Below the pieces are notes generated by a model. The model was not told where the DNA came from, ran no database searches, and saw nothing but the letters and a program-made list of their open reading frames with translations. A DNA stretch of 43,290 nucleotides. Source: a virus. Taxonomy: Duplodnaviria > Caudoviricetes. Positions within the stretch are counted from its first letter, which is position 1, and each line of letters begins with the position of its first letter. This document shows, one piece after another, positions 8,583 to 17,145 of this stretch. A program made the position numbers and the translations under genes. The DNA is taken from positions 1 to 43,290 of IMG/VR virus record IMGVR_UViG_3300030397_000037, one strand, 5' to 3'.

Positions 8583-8639
8583 GTTTATAACAAATGAGGG
8601 ATGACTACCTTCGTAATCACAAGCAAAGAGGAAATAAAA

Positions 8640-9218
8640 ATGTCATTATCTACTAACGAAGTAACAAAATTCGCAATCGACTTCACAGCGTTACAATTGC
8701 TTCCTTTATATAACCACACTCAAGCGGCACTAGGTGGTAAAGAGTTAAAACGCTTCCGTTCAAACATGCAGGCTCGCGAGCGTATCGCTGAAGCATTAAT
8801 GGCTTGGCAAGAAGCGAACCCTGAGCAAGACGTATTGATCAAAGAGTCAATCGAGTTGGGCGAAGTATTAGCCGCTGAAGTTGAAGTGGAAGACGATTTA
8901 GATACTCCGAACCGCCGTGAAATGACTTATACTGAAGCAGGCGATCCAATCGCAGTGGAAGACTTAGAGAAGCAGCAAGCGGAAGAAGTTAAAGAAGAAG
9001 TTAAAGAAGAAGCTCCGAAGAAAGAACGCAAGAAAGGTTCGTGTGCGGAGTTATGGGAAATCTTTGATCGCTTATGGAACGAACACTTCGCTGACGGTAC
9101 GGCGACTAAGAATCCAAGCCGCAAAGCAATCATTGATAAATGTGTAGAGTTAGGTTATAATAAGTTTACGGCTCGAACACAATACCAGCAGTTCTTTAGC
9201 CATAAGACATCAAAATAA
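8640..9218 (+). CDS. Putative DNA-binding protein: acidic linker plus C-terminal helical domain (paralog 1)
   Basis: Start ATG 8640 after AAGAGG (ORF track starts at 8601); C-terminal GSCAELWEIFD...RKAIIDKC...GYNKFTARTQY. Confidence 0.7.
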   Translation: MSLSTNEVTKFAIDFTALQLLPLYNHTQAALGGKELKRFRSNMQARERIAEALMAWQEANPEQDVLIKESIELGEVLAAEVEVEDDLDTPNRREMTYTEAGDPIAVEDLEKQQAEEVKEEVKEEAPKKERKKGSCAELWEIFDRLWNEHFADGTATKNPSRKAIIDKCVELGYNKFTARTQYQQFFSHKTSK

Positions 9219-9306: not shown

Positions 9307-9984
9307 ATGGTACCGGAAGCAAAGCTTGTTTTGATTCGTACTAAGGACATGGTCATAATCGGTTCTCATACTGACGTTGACTATTTAGTCGCCATGGCCG
9401 ATGCGAAGATACCGCACGATGATTATTACATCTGCGATTGCACAGAGAAATATTTGAAACCGTTTCACGGTCAAGAAGTTCTTCTACTCGCGGCGCGTAA
9501 TAAGCCTGAAGGGCAAGGTAAATATAACTTCAAGACAAAGGCCGAGATCAGAAAAGCAGCCATCGAAGCTATGTACAAGTATCCGATTTCAAATGAAAGC
9601 CTTGATGGGTTCAAGGCTAAAATAAGTCAAAGACTGGGGAATGTAACCATGACTGAACAAGTAAACGAAGTAGAAACTGCAGAAGTAACTGAAACTGTAG
9701 CAACTGAAGCGGTAGCGGAAGCGCCAGCTGCGGAAGCGAAAGTTGAAAAAGACATCCAAAATGGCGTAACTCGTCCTAAAGCTGGTTCTAAGACTGGCCG
9801 TGTATGGGAAATCGCTGATTCGCAAGGTACTGAAAACGCGGTTCGTAAGACTGTTATGGACTTGTGCGTTGCTGAAGGTATTAACGCTTCAACTGCTTCT
9901 ACGCAGTACGGCAAGTGGCGTAAGTACAACGGCTTAGGTAAAGAAGTTAAGCCAGCAGAAGTAGTTGATCAAGCTGCAGAATAA
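9307..9984 (+). CDS. Putative DNA-binding protein (paralog 2), possible internal start at 9649
   Basis: GGAG SD; C-terminal GSKTGRVWEIAD...RKTVMDLC...GINASTASTQY aligns by eye with paralog 1. Confidence 0.7.
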   Translation: MVPEAKLVLIRTKDMVIIGSHTDVDYLVAMADAKIPHDDYYICDCTEKYLKPFHGQEVLLLAARNKPEGQGKYNFKTKAEIRKAAIEAMYKYPISNESLDGFKAKISQRLGNVTMTEQVNEVETAEVTETVATEAVAEAPAAEAKVEKDIQNGVTRPKAGSKTGRVWEIADSQGTENAVRKTVMDLCVAEGINASTASTQYGKWRKYNGLGKEVKPAEVVDQAAE

Positions 9985-9991
9985 TTTGATC

Positions 9992-10160
9992 AGGGGCGAG
10001 AGCCCCTAACCTTAAACCTAAACAGTTTTTAAGGTTGCAATAATTAACACCGGTCGCCAGAACCTATCTGGCTACCACCTGAAAGCGCCTTCGCAGTCAC
10101 CCAATTCCTTTCCTCTTTGCGGAATTGGATGAGGGCGCTTCCAAGTGGTTCAACTGGAGA
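9992..10160 (+). promoter_or_regulatory. Structured RNA leader upstream of queE
   Basis: Several complementary stems visible in the sequence (see findings); the outermost stem overlaps the GGAG SD. Confidence 0.5.
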
Positions 10161-10165
10161 AAACA

Positions 10166-10876
10166 ATGAAACCAAACACCCAAAAGCCTGAGAAGGTTAT
10201 CTTTTCCGATTCCGGATCTGTCCTGCAAGTTCATCATTTCTTTCATAGCATCCAAGGCGAAGGTATTTTTGCTGGAGAACCTGCGCTATTTATTCGCTTA
10301 GCTGGTTGTAATATCCAATGTCCTGGCTGCGATGAAACTTATGCGGATCGCCGCGACTTCATGGACATGGAATCTATCCTAGCTGCCATTAAGAAGATGA
10401 AACCTGAGTCCACAAACTTAATCGTTATCTCAGGTGGCGAACCAATGCGTCAGAACTTACGCCCATTGATCGGCTTGCTTCTGAACCAGCAATGGAACGT
10501 GCAGATCGAGACCAACGGCACGGTATGCGACCCTGAATTTGATTTCGACCTAGACGGTTTATTTGTGGTCTGTAGTCCTAAGACGGCTAAGATCCATGAG
10601 CGCATTATAGAGAATGCAGACGCCTTTAAATATGTCGTGGAATGCGATAAAATTAGTGGTGACGATGGTTTGCCGTTGCAGGCTCTGCATATGCCTTCCA
10701 AGCGTCCGGTGGCTCGTCCGCCAGAAGATTTCCCCTTGCACCGTGTCTTCGTTCAACCGATGGACGTACACGATCAAGCGCAAAATAGTCGTAATACAAC
10801 TGCGGCAATTAACTCGTGTCTGGAGCATGGTTACACCCTTTGCTTGCAGATGCATAAACTAGTCGGATTGGAGTAA
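10166..10876 (+). CDS. queE: 7-carboxy-7-deazaguanine synthase (radical SAM)
   Basis: FHSIQGEG, FIRLAGCNIQCPGCD (CxxxCxxC), SGGEP, IETNG, VCSPK, LQMHK; ATG 10166 after GGAG. Confidence 0.95.
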   Translation: MKPNTQKPEKVIFSDSGSVLQVHHFFHSIQGEGIFAGEPALFIRLAGCNIQCPGCDETYADRRDFMDMESILAAIKKMKPESTNLIVISGGEPMRQNLRPLIGLLLNQQWNVQIETNGTVCDPEFDFDLDGLFVVCSPKTAKIHERIIENADAFKYVVECDKISGDDGLPLQALHMPSKRPVARPPEDFPLHRVFVQPMDVHDQAQNSRNTTAAINSCLEHGYTLCLQMHKLVGLE

Positions 10877-10880
10877 TACC

Positions 10881-11582
10881 ATGACACAACAATCGTTAGA
10901 TCTTAAAGTAAACCAAAAAGCCTTAGTAGTATTATCTGGAGGACAGGACTCCGTAACCTGTCTAGGCTGGGCGTTGGAAAATTATAGCGAGGTAGAGGCC
11001 ATCGCTTTCCATTACGGCCAGAATCATTCTGTCGAGTTGGAGCAAGCCAAGAAGATTTGCGAAGATCGCGGCATTAACCTAATGATCGCTAAGACAGATA
11101 TCTTGTCCACAATTGCTGACTCGGCTTTAGTGACTGGCGGCGATGTGAACGTGCAGCACGAGCGTAATGACAAACTACCAGCAAGCTTTGTCCCAAATCG
11201 CAATGCAATGTTCCTAACCTTTGCTCATGCATGGGCGCAGAAAATTGGTGCATTGCATCTGGTAACTGGCGTCTGCCAAACTGATTATTCAGGCTACCCA
11301 GATTGCCGTGAAGAATTTATCAAGCGTTTCGAGCGTGCATTGAATGTGGGTTATGAGACCCATATCATCATCCATACTCCGCTTATGCACTTAACCAAAG
11401 CAGAAACTTTCCAGCTTGCCGAAGATTGCGGTATCCTAGATACGGTGATTGAAGATAGTCATACATGTTATAATGGTGATCGTGAGCACAAACATGACTG
11501 GGGTTTTGGTTGTGGTAAGTGTCCTGCCTGCGAATTACGCGCTAAAGGTTGGGACGAGTTTCAAGCGGGTAAAGGTGAGTAA
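10881..11582 (+). CDS. queC: 7-cyano-7-deazaguanine synthase (no Gat domain)
   Basis: SGGQDS PP-loop, FVPNRN, DYSGYPDCR, TPLMHLTKAE, TCY...GCGKCPAC. Confidence 0.96.
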   Translation: MTQQSLDLKVNQKALVVLSGGQDSVTCLGWALENYSEVEAIAFHYGQNHSVELEQAKKICEDRGINLMIAKTDILSTIADSALVTGGDVNVQHERNDKLPASFVPNRNAMFLTFAHAWAQKIGALHLVTGVCQTDYSGYPDCREEFIKRFERALNVGYETHIIIHTPLMHLTKAETFQLAEDCGILDTVIEDSHTCYNGDREHKHDWGFGCGKCPACELRAKGWDEFQAGKGE

Positions 11583-11584
11583 TA

Positions 11585-12202
11585 ATGAAAATCCGTAAGT
11601 TGTTTAAATTCGAGAATGCGCACGTAGTTCGTAACTGTTCGAGCGACCGTTGCAAGTTCTCTATCCATGGCCACAGTTATAAGGTCGAAGTCATTTTACA
11701 AGGCGATGGCCATAACTTAGATAATGGCCAGATGCTTTATGACTTTGGCCTTATGAAAGGTACGATCAAAGACTTTATTGACTCTTTCGATCACGCGATC
11801 ACTTTATGGGCGGATGACTCCGACTCTTATGTGACAGATATGATTGCTCATTCTGCGCGTTGGATCTCTTTACCTGTATCTCCAAGTGCGGAGCAGTTCG
11901 CTCGTTTCTTCTACCTATTGGTAGAACGTGTATTAGAGAATACTGATACCAATAATGGTGAAGCGGCTATCGGAGTTCATAGCGTAATCGTGCATGAGAC
12001 TGACACTGGTTATGCGGAAGCAGAGCTCGGTGACGTCTATAGCGGTTTTGAAGAAGGCGAGATGATCCCATTCATGGATCTAAGCGAAGTGGTCTTCAGC
12101 GATCAAGTTATGATAGAATGGTCGGATCCTGATATGTTCGATAAGTTATTGAACAAGGTTCCTTTCGTAAATCCAGTAGTGAAGCAGCAGGTGGTAAAAT
12201 GA
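11585..12202 (+). CDS. queD: 6-carboxytetrahydropterin synthase (long QueD type)
   Basis: FENAHVVRNCSSDRCKFSIHGHSY, DFG, FDH, PSAE, VHET. Confidence 0.92.
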   Translation: MKIRKLFKFENAHVVRNCSSDRCKFSIHGHSYKVEVILQGDGHNLDNGQMLYDFGLMKGTIKDFIDSFDHAITLWADDSDSYVTDMIAHSARWISLPVSPSAEQFARFFYLLVERVLENTDTNNGEAAIGVHSVIVHETDTGYAEAELGDVYSGFEEGEMIPFMDLSEVVFSDQVMIEWSDPDMFDKLLNKVPFVNPVVKQQVVK

Positions 12203-13266
12203 GCAATAAGAAAGTTTTCACCCATAATGAAACACGCGAGTTAATGGTTGCGATGTACGCCCAGATTAGTCGCATGTTTGAAGGCGAAGCAGAAGTTGCG
12301 GTTTATGGTATCGCTCGCGGTGGTGTTCCTGTCGCCTATGGCCTAGTCGGTGTCGCGGCAGTCGTAACCGTTGGTCCTAAGATCATGATTGCTGAGCGCC
12401 CTGAAGATGCGGACTTGCTTGTGGACGATATTATCGACTCAGGTAATACCATGGAACTTTGGACTAAGCAATACGACCTACCTTTCATGGCCTTGCTTGA
12501 TCGCGTTGGCGATGATTTAGGTACTGAGACTTGGTTCGAGTTTCCATGGGAAAGCGTTCAACGCGATACTAAGAAATCCCACGATGATTCCATTGTCGGG
12601 ACTATTAAGAATCGTATCCGAGAAAAAGGTGCACCGTTTAAAGCGAATGACAATATCTCGGAGTTCATCTCCGAGAATGAATTGTCTATGCTCCAAGCGG
12701 AATTGACCACCCGTTGCCGTAGCGTCCTAGAAGGTTTAGTTATCGATATTGATAATGACCATAATACTCAGGATACTGCGGCTCGTATGGCTAAGATGTT
12801 TTTGCGTCAGATCTATAAGGGTCGTTATGAACCGAAACCAAAAATCACCTCATTCCCTAACGAGAAGAATTTGGATGAAATGTTTGTTACTGGTCCAATT
12901 ACCGTCAGATCTGCGTGCAGCCATCATTTTGTGCCTATTGTTGGCCAATGCTATATTGCTGTTATTCCTAGCGAAGATATGGTCATCGGACTTTCCAAGT
13001 TTAATCGAATCGTTGAGTGGATAGCTCGCCGTCCTCAGATCCAAGAAGAGATGACGGTTCAGATTGCAGACGAATTGGAAGAGTTAATGCAACCTAAAGG
13101 TCTAGCGGTAATTGTAGACGCTGAGCACCTTTGCATGACTTGGCGCGGCGTAGAAGAAACTCCAGGCCAGGCGAAGATGACCACAAACGTAGTTCGCGGT
13201 ATCTTCCGCAACGACCCAACAGCCCGCGCTGAACTTATGGCGACCCTAAACCGTCAACGAGGATAA
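12199..13266 (+). CDS. folE: Type I phosphoribosyltransferase fused to GTP cyclohydrolase I
   Basis: N-terminal YGIARGG, LLVDDIIDSGNT (PRPP loop) and WFEFPWE; C-terminal TAARMAKM, SACSHHF, GLSKFNR, RPQIQEEMT, HLCMTWRG. Confidence 0.93.
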   Translation: MSNKKVFTHNETRELMVAMYAQISRMFEGEAEVAVYGIARGGVPVAYGLVGVAAVVTVGPKIMIAERPEDADLLVDDIIDSGNTMELWTKQYDLPFMALLDRVGDDLGTETWFEFPWESVQRDTKKSHDDSIVGTIKNRIREKGAPFKANDNISEFISENELSMLQAELTTRCRSVLEGLVIDIDNDHNTQDTAARMAKMFLRQIYKGRYEPKPKITSFPNEKNLDEMFVTGPITVRSACSHHFVPIVGQCYIAVIPSEDMVIGLSKFNRIVEWIARRPQIQEEMTVQIADELEELMQPKGLAVIVDAEHLCMTWRGVEETPGQAKMTTNVVRGIFRNDPTARAELMATLNRQRG

Positions 13267-13268
13267 GC

Positions 13269-14177
13269 ATGCACCTATATCTGGCAGGTACTTACACGTC
13301 CAGCTTCGGCGAACGAAGCACGGCGTTTAATAGGCTGACAGATAGCGAGCGGGAAAAACGGCTCCAAGTAGATCATTTCTTGGAGTCGTACCACTATATT
13401 CACAAAGAAGGTTTCGTAGAGCAGATTCGAGAAGATGGTAAAAAGGTCTTCTTGGACTCCGGAGCTTTCTCTGCTTTTACCAAAGGCGTAGAAGTAGACC
13501 TGCCAGCTTTCTGTCGTTACATCCATGATAAAGCGGATATCATTCTTTTCCCGTCCGTGCTGGACGGTATTGGCGATCCGTTAAAGACTTACGAGAATCA
13601 AAAGCGGATGGAGGATTTAGGGGCACCACCACTACCCTGTTTCCACTATGGCGAGGACGAGCGATACCTTGAATACTATATCGAGAATTATGAGTATATG
13701 ACTCTCGGTGGTATGGTACCAATCTCGACACCTCAACTCCACCATTGGCTTGACCGCATGTGGGGCGAATACCTGACTAATCCGGACGGGACGCCTAAGA
13801 TCAAAGTTCATGGTTTCGGTTTAACCTCGGCTGAGTTAATGGTAAAATACCCTTGGTATTCGGTGGATTCTTCCTCATGGGTACAGGGCGCTGCGAACGG
13901 TAACGTGTTCTTCCCAGACATCGGGATGATCCCTATATCTTCGCAAAGTTATATGCGCAAGAACTTTGGCCAGCACTTCACGACCTATCCGCAGGCATGG
14001 CAAGACCATTTGCGGGAACGGATTGAGGCGCTTGGTTTCGATGTGGAACGACTGACCACATTATACCAATGTCGATGGGCTTTTAATGCCTATCAGTTCG
14101 CTGAATTTGGTAGACAGATTACCAAAGACAAAGGGGCAAATCCAACTTTCCAAGTTGGGCAGATGGGGTTATTCTGA
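13269..14177 (+). CDS. dpdA: DNA 7-deazaguanine transglycosylase (TGT-like)
   Basis: FLDSGAFS, LDGIGD, PCFH, LGGMV, VHGFG, SVDSSSW motifs; last gene of the que cluster. Confidence 0.88.
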   Translation: MHLYLAGTYTSSFGERSTAFNRLTDSEREKRLQVDHFLESYHYIHKEGFVEQIREDGKKVFLDSGAFSAFTKGVEVDLPAFCRYIHDKADIILFPSVLDGIGDPLKTYENQKRMEDLGAPPLPCFHYGEDERYLEYYIENYEYMTLGGMVPISTPQLHHWLDRMWGEYLTNPDGTPKIKVHGFGLTSAELMVKYPWYSVDSSSWVQGAANGNVFFPDIGMIPISSQSYMRKNFGQHFTTYPQAWQDHLRERIEALGFDVERLTTLYQCRWAFNAYQFAEFGRQITKDKGANPTFQVGQMGLF

Positions 14178-15154
14178 TGCTATATGCTTTAAAGTTTGTT
14201 CAGGGCGCGGTCGCTAAAAAGGATTTTGTCCCTGAACTAACTCACTACCTGATCCGCGATAAGCGGATCACTGGTTACAATGGGCGCATTGCGTTAAGCT
14301 GCAAGATCGAAACCGATCTAGACTTAGCGCCTAAAGCTCAGCCATTCATCAAGGCAATCGAACGTTGCCAAGATACCGTTAAAATGCACGTGACGCCAAC
14401 GGGTAAGATCTCGATCAAAAGCGGTAAGAAGCGGTTCCTGATCGATCAAATGGAAGAGAATGTTTTTCCAGAAATCTCGCCGCCGGAATCAAAAATGATC
14501 GACCTACCTGAGGGTAGTTTTATTGGCGTATTAAAGGAATTAATGCCATTCATCGCCGAGGACGCCTCACGTCCATGGGCGAAGGGGATTTTGTTTAGAA
14601 ATGGGTTTGCCCATGCTACCAACAATATTATCCTAGTTCAGAAGTGGTTGGGATTTACGCTTCCATTCGAGATCAATTTTCCACAACATGCGATTCGCGA
14701 ATTAATGCGCATTAAGCGTGACCCAGTTCGCATCCAGTTAAGTGAGTCTACCGCTCGCTTTTGGTTTGACGATGATACTTGGATGCAGACAAACTTGTAC
14801 GCTACCGAGTGGCCTGATATGGATACCTTGCTAAATACTTACGCAGCGTCTCCAACTGGTAATGGCGTGAAGCTGGATGACGTTACCTTGCAGGCAGCGG
14901 AAGACCTAGTCCCGTTCGCCAACGAACTAGACGCCATACACATTCGCAATGGTTGCCTTTGCACCTCGGCCATCGATGATGAAGGGGCGCAGATCGAAGT
15001 AGGGGATCTTGGTATCGAAGGGGCTTGCTTTAATGTTAAACAGTTTATAAAATTACATTCGATAGCAAACGAGGTCGACTTCACAACCTTCCCCAAACCT
15101 TGTGGATTCTTTGGGGATAGCCTTCGAGGCGTATTTATAGGTATGCGAGTATGA
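14177..15154 (+). CDS. DNA polymerase III beta-clamp-like sliding clamp
   Basis: 325 aa; ALKFVQGAVAKKDFVPELTH, FIAEDASRPWAKGILF, ATN, WPD, GVFIGMR echo DnaN patterns; directly upstream of the polymerase. Confidence 0.8.
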   Translation: MLYALKFVQGAVAKKDFVPELTHYLIRDKRITGYNGRIALSCKIETDLDLAPKAQPFIKAIERCQDTVKMHVTPTGKISIKSGKKRFLIDQMEENVFPEISPPESKMIDLPEGSFIGVLKELMPFIAEDASRPWAKGILFRNGFAHATNNIILVQKWLGFTLPFEINFPQHAIRELMRIKRDPVRIQLSESTARFWFDDDTWMQTNLYATEWPDMDTLLNTYAASPTGNGVKLDDVTLQAAEDLVPFANELDAIHIRNGCLCTSAIDDEGAQIEVGDLGIEGACFNVKQFIKLHSIANEVDFTTFPKPCGFFGDSLRGVFIGMRV

Positions 15155-17145
15155 GGTTTGATAATATTGGCCTATTCTGGGAAGATATCCCAGCAGCGAA
15201 AGGCAAGTCAAACGTAGTCCGTCCAATTGCGCCTATCCCTGATACTGGATGGACGCCACCTACCTACCTACCTGATCTTAGCGCGGCCAAGATGATTTGT
15301 ATTGACTTGGAGACCTATGATCCCGAGCTGATCGAAAATGGACCAGGATGGGCGCGTGGCGTAGGTCATATTGTTGGGGTTGCTATCGGAACCGAGACAG
15401 GCCGGAAATGGTACTTCCCAATCCGCCATGAGATGGAACCTGGAATGAATTGGGATCCTGAAGTCGTATTGAAATGGTGCCGCCAAGAATTAGGTCGACC
15501 ACACCAGCCCAAACTAGGTGCGAACATTACTTATGACTATGGCTGGTTCCTTCAAGAAGGGGTCGAAGTAAAAGGACCCCTTTTAGACGTTCAGTATGCA
15601 GAAGCCTTATTGGATGAAACCGCTAGCGTTGAATTAGAAACCCTTGGTCAGAAATATTTGGACGAGGGTAAAAAGTCAAACGTGTTCTATAAGTGGGCTG
15701 CGGATTCTTATGGCGGTAAGGCCAACGGTCGCCAACGTGCGAACATTTACCGTTCCCCGCCAAGATTAGTCGGTCCTTATGCCGAGAGCGATGCCGACTT
15801 GCCTACCCGAGTCTTTGCCAAGCAGCTCCCACTATTGCAGCGAGATGGACTGATCGAGATCTTCGATTTGGAATGTCGTCTTATTCGCTGCCTAGTCGAG
15901 ATGCGCTTTGCTGGTGTTAGCGTTGACATCGAGAAGGCTGAGCGAACTCGTGAAGCACTTATGGTTAAAGAGCAAATGGCTCAGCAACAGTTGGATAAGT
16001 ACGCTGGCTTCCAAGTGAATACGAACTCCTCTGAGCATTTGGCGCGGGCTTTCGATACTTATAAGATTCCTTACCCTAAGACGGCCAAAGGTAATCCATC
16101 ATTTAAAGGCGCTTTCCTTGATAAGGTTAATCACCCAATGGGCGATCTAATCCGAACAGTTAAGAAATATGCGAAAGCACGTTCAACCTTTGTGGAAGGC
16201 TACATTTTAGATAAACATATTAACGGGAAATTATATGGTCAATTTCATCAACTTAGAGGTGATTCTGGCGGTACTCGTTCTGGGCGCTTCAGCTCGTCTG
16301 GTCCGAACCTCCAGAACCTGCCATCAAGAGACCCAGAACTCGGACCAATGATCCGAGGACTATTTGTCCCAGACTATGGTCACGTTGCTTGGCGCAAATA
16401 CGATTACTCTCAGATCGAGTATCGCTTCCTTGCTCACTTCTGTATCGGTACGGGATCGGACAAGATTCGTCAAATCTTTATTGCTAACCCTTACGCTGAC
16501 TTCCATACGGCAACGCAGGAGCTAATCAAGAATACCACAGGTATCGAACTGCCCCGCAAGAATACGAAAAATATTAACTTCGGTTTATGTTATGGTATGG
16601 GCGTGAGCACTTTATCGGAAGGCCTAGGTTTGACCAAGGCTGAAGGCAATAAACTCTTTGAGGCATATCACTTAGGTGCTCCATTTGTAAAGGCCACATT
16701 TGACGCTTGTGTCTCGCAGGCTTTAACGGACGGAACGATCACTACAATTCTAGGGCGAAAATCTCGCTTTGACTATTGGGAACCGGCTGGATTCCAAAAG
16801 GGCGCGCCCGCCTTACCTTACCATAAGGCCTTGGCGACTTACGGCTCTATCAAGCGAGCGGCAAGCCATAAAGGTCTCAACCGTTTACTGCAGGGTTCGG
16901 CAGCTGACCAAATGAAGAAAGCCATGGTCGATTGCTATGAACAAGGCGTATTTGCCGAGACTGGTATCCCACGTCTAACTGTGCACGATGAATTGGATTT
17001 CTCTGATCCTGGTGGTAAGTCTGAAGCGTTTAAAGAGATGAAGCGTATCATGGAGACCACTATCACGTTACGGATTCCAGTAGTAGCGGATGGCGAAATT
17101 GGACCAGATTGGGGTAACGTAAGAGATTTGGAAGAGGGCGAGTAG
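15151..17145 (+). CDS. Family A DNA polymerase with 3'-5' exonuclease
   Basis: DLET exo I, SGRFSSSGPNLQN, motif A DYSQIEYR, motif B KNINFGLCYG, LQGSAAD, motif C VHDE. Confidence 0.96.
   Translation: MRFDNIGLFWEDIPAAKGKSNVVRPIAPIPDTGWTPPTYLPDLSAAKMICIDLETYDPELIENGPGWARGVGHIVGVAIGTETGRKWYFPIRHEMEPGMNWDPEVVLKWCRQELGRPHQPKLGANITYDYGWFLQEGVEVKGPLLDVQYAEALLDETASVELETLGQKYLDEGKKSNVFYKWAADSYGGKANGRQRANIYRSPPRLVGPYAESDADLPTRVFAKQLPLLQRDGLIEIFDLECRLIRCLVEMRFAGVSVDIEKAERTREALMVKEQMAQQQLDKYAGFQVNTNSSEHLARAFDTYKIPYPKTAKGNPSFKGAFLDKVNHPMGDLIRTVKKYAKARSTFVEGYILDKHINGKLYGQFHQLRGDSGGTRSGRFSSSGPNLQNLPSRDPELGPMIRGLFVPDYGHVAWRKYDYSQIEYRFLAHFCIGTGSDKIRQIFIANPYADFHTATQELIKNTTGIELPRKNTKNINFGLCYGMGVSTLSEGLGLTKAEGNKLFEAYHLGAPFVKATFDACVSQALTDGTITTILGRKSRFDYWEPAGFQKGAPALPYHKALATYGSIKRAASHKGLNRLLQGSAADQMKKAMVDCYEQGVFAETGIPRLTVHDELDFSDPGGKSEAFKEMKRIMETTITLRIPVVADGEIGPDWGNVRDLEEGE

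Follow-up and report, generated by a model that had tools for sequence, protein, structure and literature searches.

The locus considered here raises the question of why a phage DNA-guanine transglycosylase ends in a peptide resembling a clamp-binding motif, directly ahead of a sliding clamp gene. The window (the whole 43,290-nucleotide stretch analyzed) is a 67%-complete contig, the gene content of which points to dPreQ0 as the modification product. On its plus strand, dpdA (13269..14177), encoding a DpdA1-type transglycosylase of 302 aa, is clustered with genes for preQ0 synthesis, namely queE, queC, queD and a phosphoribosyltransferase-like/FolE fusion (10145..13266; Pfam and PHROG matches, with NCBIfam matches of the FolE part slightly below cut-off), and is followed on the same strand by genes for a phage beta-type sliding clamp (14177..15154, 325 aa) and a family A DNA polymerase with a 3'-5' exonuclease domain (15151..17145, 664 aa; PF00476, E 1e-59, and PF01612). 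As the earlier note had read from the sequence, the last five residues of DpdA are QMGLF (14160..14174), the dpdA stop overlaps the clamp ATG (TGATG, 14175-14179), and the clamp ORF overlaps the polymerase start (ATGA, 15151-15154). The phages of Queuovirinae and their relatives that encode DpdA1, such as 9g, CAjan and Iggy, have the same order, queE-queC-queD-folE-dpdA followed by the clamp and a polymerase, and their DpdAs likewise end in LF tails (QDLFDE, VMELF and IQELF, respectively); the module is paired with PolA in the window phage but with a PolB-type enzyme in these three (PMC6884629, PMC7544227, PMC10484667, PMC10516641). The four papers term the modification post-replicative, the word "clamp" does not occur in their main texts, and no description of a clamp-docking tail on a phage DpdA was found in the literature searched.

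DpdA itself is predicted to replace guanine in DNA with a 7-deazaguanine that has a protective role. It matches phrog_887 (E 6e-76), is 45-47% identical to the DpdAs of 9g, CAjan and Iggy, and has a TGT-like barrel, with TGT fold matches at E 1e-5 and TGTs as the best fold matches of its AF2 model (pLDDT 94). The protein scores far under the cut-off of the bacterial DpdA model NF041059; a single-protein sequence search gave no match to a solved phage DpdA structure, and a profile search for solved DpdA returned only the bacterial DpdA 7UI4, at E 0.3. The last helix of the AF2 model spans residues 266-288 and is followed by coil, comprising a variable linker (residues 289-297, 14133..14159, plus strand) with one conserved aromatic residue, F294 (14148-14150), and the QMGLF pentamer. 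Separately, matches to Qxx[LM][FY] are found inside other ORFs of the window, at position 130 of the helicase, 204 of the clamp and 3 of the capsid protein.

A single sighting of QMGLF is not compelling, because a Qxx[LM][FL] match in the last six registers is expected by chance at ~0.003 per gene, i.e., ~0.18 over the ~55 genes of this genome; the compelling part is conservation. Relatives in viral contigs were recovered by an alignment-based scan (a single-protein scan gave none), and the tails of the most distant ones come from such viral-contig scans only. Among 120 DpdA homologues, the tail Q is kept in 113, L in 113 and F in 117, position 294 is F or Y in 119, and the linker ahead of the motif shows ~15% pairwise identity. 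Qxx[LMIV][FYW] lies inside the last 10 residues of 109 of the 120 homologues, compared with 4 of the 1517 distinct ends of other ORFs in related loci, a background that includes spurious ORFs; the alignment of C-termini proposed by the earlier note thus bears out a conserved QxxLF-type tail. The published clamp-motif pattern, Q-aliphatic-x-[L/M]-[F/L] (PMC11139829), is matched by QMGLF provided that Met counts as aliphatic. Of these tails, 49/120 fit Q[LIVMA]x[LM][FL], 105/120 fit Qxx[LM][FL] and 0/120 have the exact QL[SD]LF, and motif position 2 is Pro in 42/120, a residue reported to be unfavourable for binding of the Gln by the E. coli clamp (PMC11139829). The DpdA of Dp-1, 29% identical to that of the window, ends in QRRLF, and Dp-1 encodes DnaN. 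The idea that the enzymes of the pathway share a clamp tag is rejected on the basis of the QueC proteins from the same loci, only 3 of 67 of which end in such a motif.

The overlap of dpdA with the next gene suggests another origin for these residues, as a by-product of an overlapping ribosome-binding site and start codon. In 48 tails with the QxxLF register, both Q codons, all six L codons and both F codons are used, and this free synonymous choice indicates that selection acts on the protein; furthermore, the motif persists with 1-10 residues after it (16/70) or where the next gene is other than the clamp. The one trend in the opposite direction is that E or G precedes LF in 45/55 start-coupled but 8/14 uncoupled tails (Fisher p 0.075), an excess that fits a purine-rich Shine-Dalgarno constraint at motif position 3 alone. 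Codon usage thus largely refutes the by-product reading where Q, L and F are concerned; it could apply at position 3 alone, and as an account of the tail it is very improbable. Taken together, these comparisons support the interpretation of the DpdA tail as a conserved, protein-level motif of the clamp-binding type.

It is also conceivable that F294 and the LF terminus have a structural role, packing against the DpdA barrel or within a DpdA dimer, and only resemble a clamp motif. The pLDDT of 87 for residues 291-300 in the AF2 monomer suggests that some of the tail may pack against the rest of the protein, F/Y294 is conserved as strongly as the motif, and the pattern could be plain inheritance inside one large clade. 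Against this, the pLDDT drops to 71 at L301-F302, the terminal LF persists in lineages that have diverged in the sequence and length of the helices and linkers ahead of it, and there are functional DpdA relatives without the tail. Moreover, the same pentamer terminates proteins other than DpdA in clamp phages: Suba, a related phage with a clamp, has a family B polymerase whose last residues are QPTLFA, containing a pentamer seen in DpdA tails, and gp53 of phi3ST:2, unrelated to DpdA, also ends in a tail pentamer. We consider a purely structural role improbable.

The tail travels with the phage clamp gene, as supported by two sets of genomes. The clamp gene is present in 76 of 80 related loci; in two further contigs it lies elsewhere or is cut, and two end inside dpdA. 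One locus retains the tail though its clamp gene is far off. In a broader comparison, with clamps called by phrog_947 (detected in 13 of 14 control genomes), the LF tail is found in 44/60 clamp-positive rows versus 0/24 clamp-negative rows; the 16 clamp-positive rows that fail the strict tail rule include Cellulophaga phi3ST:2. The co-occurrence envisaged by the earlier note holds by row counts; over the phylogenetically independent contrasts, of which there are 3-4 (FastTree, with a long-branch warning), the sign test is not significant. DpdAs without the tail often adjoin ParB-like genes, and none of these was found in the window or in the 80 close loci.

The clamp ORF matches phrog_947 (E 5e-57), and its AF2 model (pLDDT 94) has the three-domain beta-clamp fold, with Foldseek matches to DnaN (TMq about 0.71-0.81, E about 1e-18). 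It scores 24 on TIGR00663 (E 1e-5), below the cut-off of 137.65, which indicates a divergent phage form. The predicted peptide pocket (residues 132, 148-153, 213, 218, 286, 306, 308 and 319-324) is more conserved than the clamp overall (0.78 vs 0.66, p 0.02), with R132, T148, P213, M323 and R324 conserved at the aligned positions; an equivalent of His175 is absent from the alignment, where the register is ambiguous. The modeling of clamp and peptide proposed earlier gave a positive result. DpdA residues 295-302 are placed in the canonical pocket with ipSAE 0.66, the best of three controls reaching 0.00, and the ipSAE mark is passed by 116/157 solved pairs vs 2/215 mismatched ones; the runs share at least 82% of contacts, with partner pLDDT of at least 44, and the residues in contact correspond in the alignment to those of the E. 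coli pocket. This result may reflect prior exposure of the modeling method to solved complexes of beta clamps with peptides, and the fold of the partner in the model is uncertain. On this evidence, we propose that QMGLF is probably a clamp-binding motif that is predicted to dock DpdA in the phage clamp pocket and would likely enrich the enzyme on replicated phage DNA.

The same peptide might instead bind mainly host DnaN, with the phage clamp serving the polymerase only. Plasmid modification by the 9g DpdA in E. coli proceeds without a phage clamp, and no clamp loader (PF13177) was found in the window (67% complete) or in 9g, CAjan, Iggy or another searched genome (G105); Dp-1 does encode one. 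In addition, a remote provirus family of DpdA-like proteins ends in the hexamer Q-x-E-[LM]-x-[LV] (78/80 loci), and 0/33 searched contigs of this family encode a clamp. However, the pentamer tail is missing from all clamp-negative rows, the motif departs from the host consensus in its lack of exact matches and its frequent Pro at position 2, the phage pocket has an invariant Gly in place of E. coli Pro363, and the docking model, run on the phage clamp only, places the tail there. We regard host DnaN as an unlikely main target.

The earlier note had likened QMGLF to NIGLF near the polymerase N-terminus. These letters are indeed present (15163-15177), but they do not form a Gln-type clamp motif, and this assignment is rejected: they belong to RFDNIGLFWED (15154..15186, plus strand; consensus RxD[SA]xG[ML]FWxD), in which N is an outlier (the column has S in 54, A in 53 and N in 5 of 119 matched homologues, with no Q). 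All 119 PolA homologues that matched, out of 120, share the R, D, G, F, W and D, and the motif is present in 67 of 70 large ORFs 3' of the clamp, PolA and non-PolA alike, so that a near-invariant RxDxxG[LMF]FW survives the PolA/PolB swap. The polymerase N-terminus may still work as a clamp ligand and is a candidate polymerase-clamp contact.

In E. coli cells provided with the 9g DpdA and Gat-QueC but no phage clamp gene, 9-18% of plasmid G became modified (PMC6884629), which rules out clamp tethering as an essential step in modification. Rosebush also argues against it: its DNA carries 96,530 modified bases per million (PMC6884629), and Hedgerow, of the same species, has neither tail nor clamp. 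In the tailed Dp-1, about 1.7% of G is modified (PMC6884629). The suggestion that a DpdA-clamp link directs modification to phage DNA runs counter to the plasmid result and is rejected, whereas the idea that DpdA rides the clamp retains the conserved tail, clamp linkage and docking model in its favor, except that the link is not required. We hypothesize that tethering would be an efficiency aid rather than a requirement: the tail would dock in the peptide-binding pocket of the phage clamp and likely raise the DpdA concentration on replicated phage DNA; the dimeric ring could hold DpdA beside the polymerase, with the RxDxxG[LM]FW N-terminus of the latter as a candidate occupant of the second pocket, or on clamps that stay on the DNA after the fork has passed; and DpdA would then exchange G for preQ0 at its target motif.

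Known systems offer partial parallels. Sliding clamps carry DNA-acting enzymes via short terminal motifs in DNMT1-PCNA (maintenance methylation) and T4 gp45 clients, an analogy only, as clamp class, motif and chemistry differ. The bacterial beta-clamp clients (Pol II, Pol III alpha, Pol IV, Pol V, Hda and MutL; PMC11139829) are closer, having in common a terminal Q-x-x-L-F on coil and a pocket (R152, T172-L177, P242, V247, M362-R365) whose equivalents the DpdA tail is predicted to use; here, however, the client is a base-exchange enzyme, the clamp is phage-encoded, and P, M or I predominate at tail position 2. Bacterial DpdA is likewise aided by a partner, the ParB-like ATPase DpdB, whose model surrounds a tunnel of 20 A, through which DNA could fit, with no stable DpdA-DpdB complex seen (PMC10164549); the predicted partner in our case is a replication clamp. 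More tentatively, phage DpdAs might ride interchangeable DNA-encircling partners, i.e., their own beta clamp via QxxLF, the host clamp via the hexameric tail in proviruses, and ParB/DpdB-like proteins if tail-less; the clamp could then be a tool-belt that brings DpdA along behind the fork, together with DpdM in the case of Cellulophaga phages.

The phage DpdA literature, in the parts consulted, offers no explanation of how a single transglycosylase reaches almost every target site in a rapidly replicating genome before it is packaged, and a clamp-docking tail would be a concrete mechanism for such genome-wide coverage. If the proposal is correct, a base-exchange enzyme joins the list of clamp clients, a role is suggested for the uncharacterized phage beta clamps that adjoin 7-deazaguanine modules, and docking would likely tie the anti-restriction modification to newly copied DNA.

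The window, a linear virus record of 43,290 bases with an estimated completeness of 67%, carries structural genes of the siphophage type. On its plus strand, queE, queC, queD and a phosphoribosyltransferase-like/FolE fusion gene lie upstream of dpdA (13269-14177), after which come the clamp gene (14177-15154) and then a gene for a polymerase of family A (15151-17145); the adjacency of the modification module and polymerase genes is also noted in the available text of PMC10484667. The AlphaFold models of DpdA and the clamp gene product are a TGT barrel and a DnaN-type clamp fold, respectively. The features reported in the earlier note are all present: QMGLF at the DpdA terminus (14160-14174, plus strand), the TGATG overlap of dpdA and the clamp gene, and the letters NIGLF in the polymerase (15163-15177, plus strand).

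Several other features of this region were observed. In the fusion protein (12199-13266), FolE is joined to a phosphoribosyltransferase-like domain at its N-terminus (Pfam PF00156, E 3e-5). Two related acidic proteins encoded upstream of queE (8601-9218 and 9307-9984) both match phrog_7864, and genes resembling this pair recur 5' of queE in related loci. The top NCBIfam score of the polymerase (15151-17145) is to phage_DpoZ_1, at 292 bits against a cut-off of 500, and assignment to DpoZ was not accepted.

With a loose pattern, about 0.18 QMGLF-like endings are expected by chance over the ~55 genes of the window, so the tail of a single genome is too common a sighting to convince. The motif is, however, conserved in related DpdAs. 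Among the best 120 of 4,826 homologs (the 119 non-query members being 54-63% identical), Qxx[LMIV][FYW] occurs within the final ten residues in 109, and Q298, L301 and F302 are retained in 113, 113 and 117, respectively, whereas residues 281-293 and 295-297 show ~15% identity; F/Y294 is retained in 119 of the 120. The exact QL[SD]LF motif was found in none of these 120 tails, and position 2 is Pro in 42. The window and the top 80 among 573 viral loci together yielded 70 distinct tails, 48 of the QxxLF type, 17 of the QxLF type and 5 without Q. The full sets of synonymous codons are in use for the tail Q, L and F, which indicates selection on the protein. The residue preceding LF may be biased by the ribosome-binding site of the next gene (p 0.075). 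Such a motif terminates only 4 of 1,517 other ORFs and 3 of 67 distinct QueC proteins; these three QueCs (L016:7791-8555, L019:7683-8555 and L063:7077-7871, in close viral loci) have canonical-looking QL[SPD]LF ends.

The clamp gene is present in 76 of these top 80 loci. Two of the remaining four break off within dpdA, a third has a clamp gene truncated at the contig edge, and the last encodes the clamp at another site of its contig. Among cultured phages, the DpdAs of 9g, CAjan and Iggy have LF tails, and that of Streptococcus phage Dp-1, which encodes DnaN, is 29% identical and ends in QRRLF; neither tail nor clamp was found in Hedgerow, Cracklewink, StAugustine, Sonali, Megan or phiFN37. 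In a sample of distant DpdAs (67 contigs picked by hand, mostly for length, among 160 returned loci; one truncated ORF uncounted), a strict LF ending occurs in 32/50 clamp-positive versus 2/16 clamp-negative contigs, the latter two being cut directly after dpdA and 19% complete, respectively. Once these two, two more contigs less than 50% complete and near-duplicates were dropped, and cultured and close representatives added for the tree, the LF tail was found in 44/60 clamp-positive versus 0/24 clamp-negative rows. Only 3-4 contrasts are phylogenetically independent, and a sign test did not reach significance, so that the association fits the idea short of statistical proof.

When the clamp alignment was folded together with DpdA residues 273-302, the tail was placed on the clamp with a score of 0.66 (best of three controls, 0.00), a mark attained by 116/157 solved and 2/215 mismatched pairs. 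The runs agreed in at least 82% of contacts, with partner pLDDT of at least 44. In the model, DpdA 295-302 contacts clamp residues 132, 148, 150-153, 213, 218, 251, 286, 306, 308, 319 and 321-324, most of which align with Escherichia coli pocket residues in the available text of PMC11139829 (C-terminal register matched by hand). Conservation is higher at these contact residues than at other clamp positions (0.78 versus 0.66, p 0.02). Given that the PDB is rich in beta-clamp-peptide complexes, this result denotes likeness rather than binding. The monomer model gives tail residues 291-300 a moderately high pLDDT of 87, so part of the tail could possibly pack on the DpdA barrel.

The polymerase NIGLF, which had been considered similar, does not hold up as a clamp motif of the Gln type: its first column is S or A in 107/119 homologs and N in 5/119. 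The conserved N-terminal unit is RxD[SA]xG[ML]FWxD, found in 67/70 large ORFs 3' of the clamp in loci chosen by DpdA; its carriers comprise 42 PolA and 27 non-PolA ORFs, and it also starts the family-B-like polymerases of 9g, CAjan and Iggy. Across the close loci (L001-L080), family A and family-B-like polymerases alternate 3' of the clamp with this peptide constant. Because the peptide survives a polymerase-family swap beside a constant clamp gene, it would most simply be a clamp contact. The family B polymerase of Xanthomonas phage Suba, in whose clamp region dpdA was not seen, lacks this start and ends in QPTLFA.

Tail-less DpdAs often have a ParB-like gene beside them. No more than 3 kb from dpdA, such a gene was found in 0/50 clamp-positive versus 11/14 clamp-negative contigs; among distinct distant tails, it adjoins 0/59 tailed DpdAs, and 18/18 ParB-adjacent DpdAs are tail-less (counts from an HMM built on neighbors of tail-less DpdAs, same-strand ORFs only, non-independent kin included). 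In L186-L344 and the cultured phages (L085-L092), this neighbor is usual for tail-less and never seen for tailed DpdAs of this sample. These genes recall bacterial DpdB, a ParB-like ATPase required by bacterial DpdA and modelled as encircling DNA (PMC10164549, available text). Cellulophaga phage phi3ST:2 is a clamp-positive exception with a tail-less DpdA, adjoined by gp53, a CxxCxxCC protein ending in QVNLF (L105:13400-14053), and a ParB-like protein ending in SVNLF (L105:12216-12680); by gene order, gp53 is likely the DpdM described in the available text of PMC10516641. A remote family of DpdA-like proteins, grouped with that of Pseudomonas phage Epa33 (L106-L185), has the hexamer end Q-x-E-[LM]-x-[LV] in 78/80 loci. 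A clamp gene was found in none of 33 searched contigs of this family, mostly proviruses, so this tail points to the host clamp. Near the Epa33 DpdA-like gene (L091:2465-3190), a D12-class adenine methyltransferase (L091:1366-2223) has QLDIF close to its C-terminus; both proteins are candidate host-clamp clients.

We found no published DpdA-clamp link in the mostly open-access literature covered, including the available text of PMC7824862 and bioRxiv 2025.02.15.638363, and the word "clamp" does not occur in the main texts of PMC6884629, PMC7544227, PMC10164549, PMC10516641 and PMC10484667. According to the available text of PMC6884629, 9g DpdA with Gat-QueC exchanges 9-18% of the G in plasmids for dG+ in E. 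coli lacking the phage clamp, versus up to 27% in the phage itself; DpdA is thus not confined to phage DNA. The same source gives for Rosebush, a same-species relative of Hedgerow, a value of 96,530, read here as modified bases per million, and ~1.7% of G for Dp-1, with its tailed DpdA. A tether is therefore neither required for modification nor a predictor of its level. No clamp loader was detected in the window (67% complete; clamp and polymerase at 14177-17145), 9g, CAjan, Iggy or G105, which all encode a beta clamp; Dp-1 has a loader. The tail motif is genuine and probably a clamp ligand; it likely binds some beta clamp, and there is a good chance that the phage clamp serves as an efficiency tether for DpdA.
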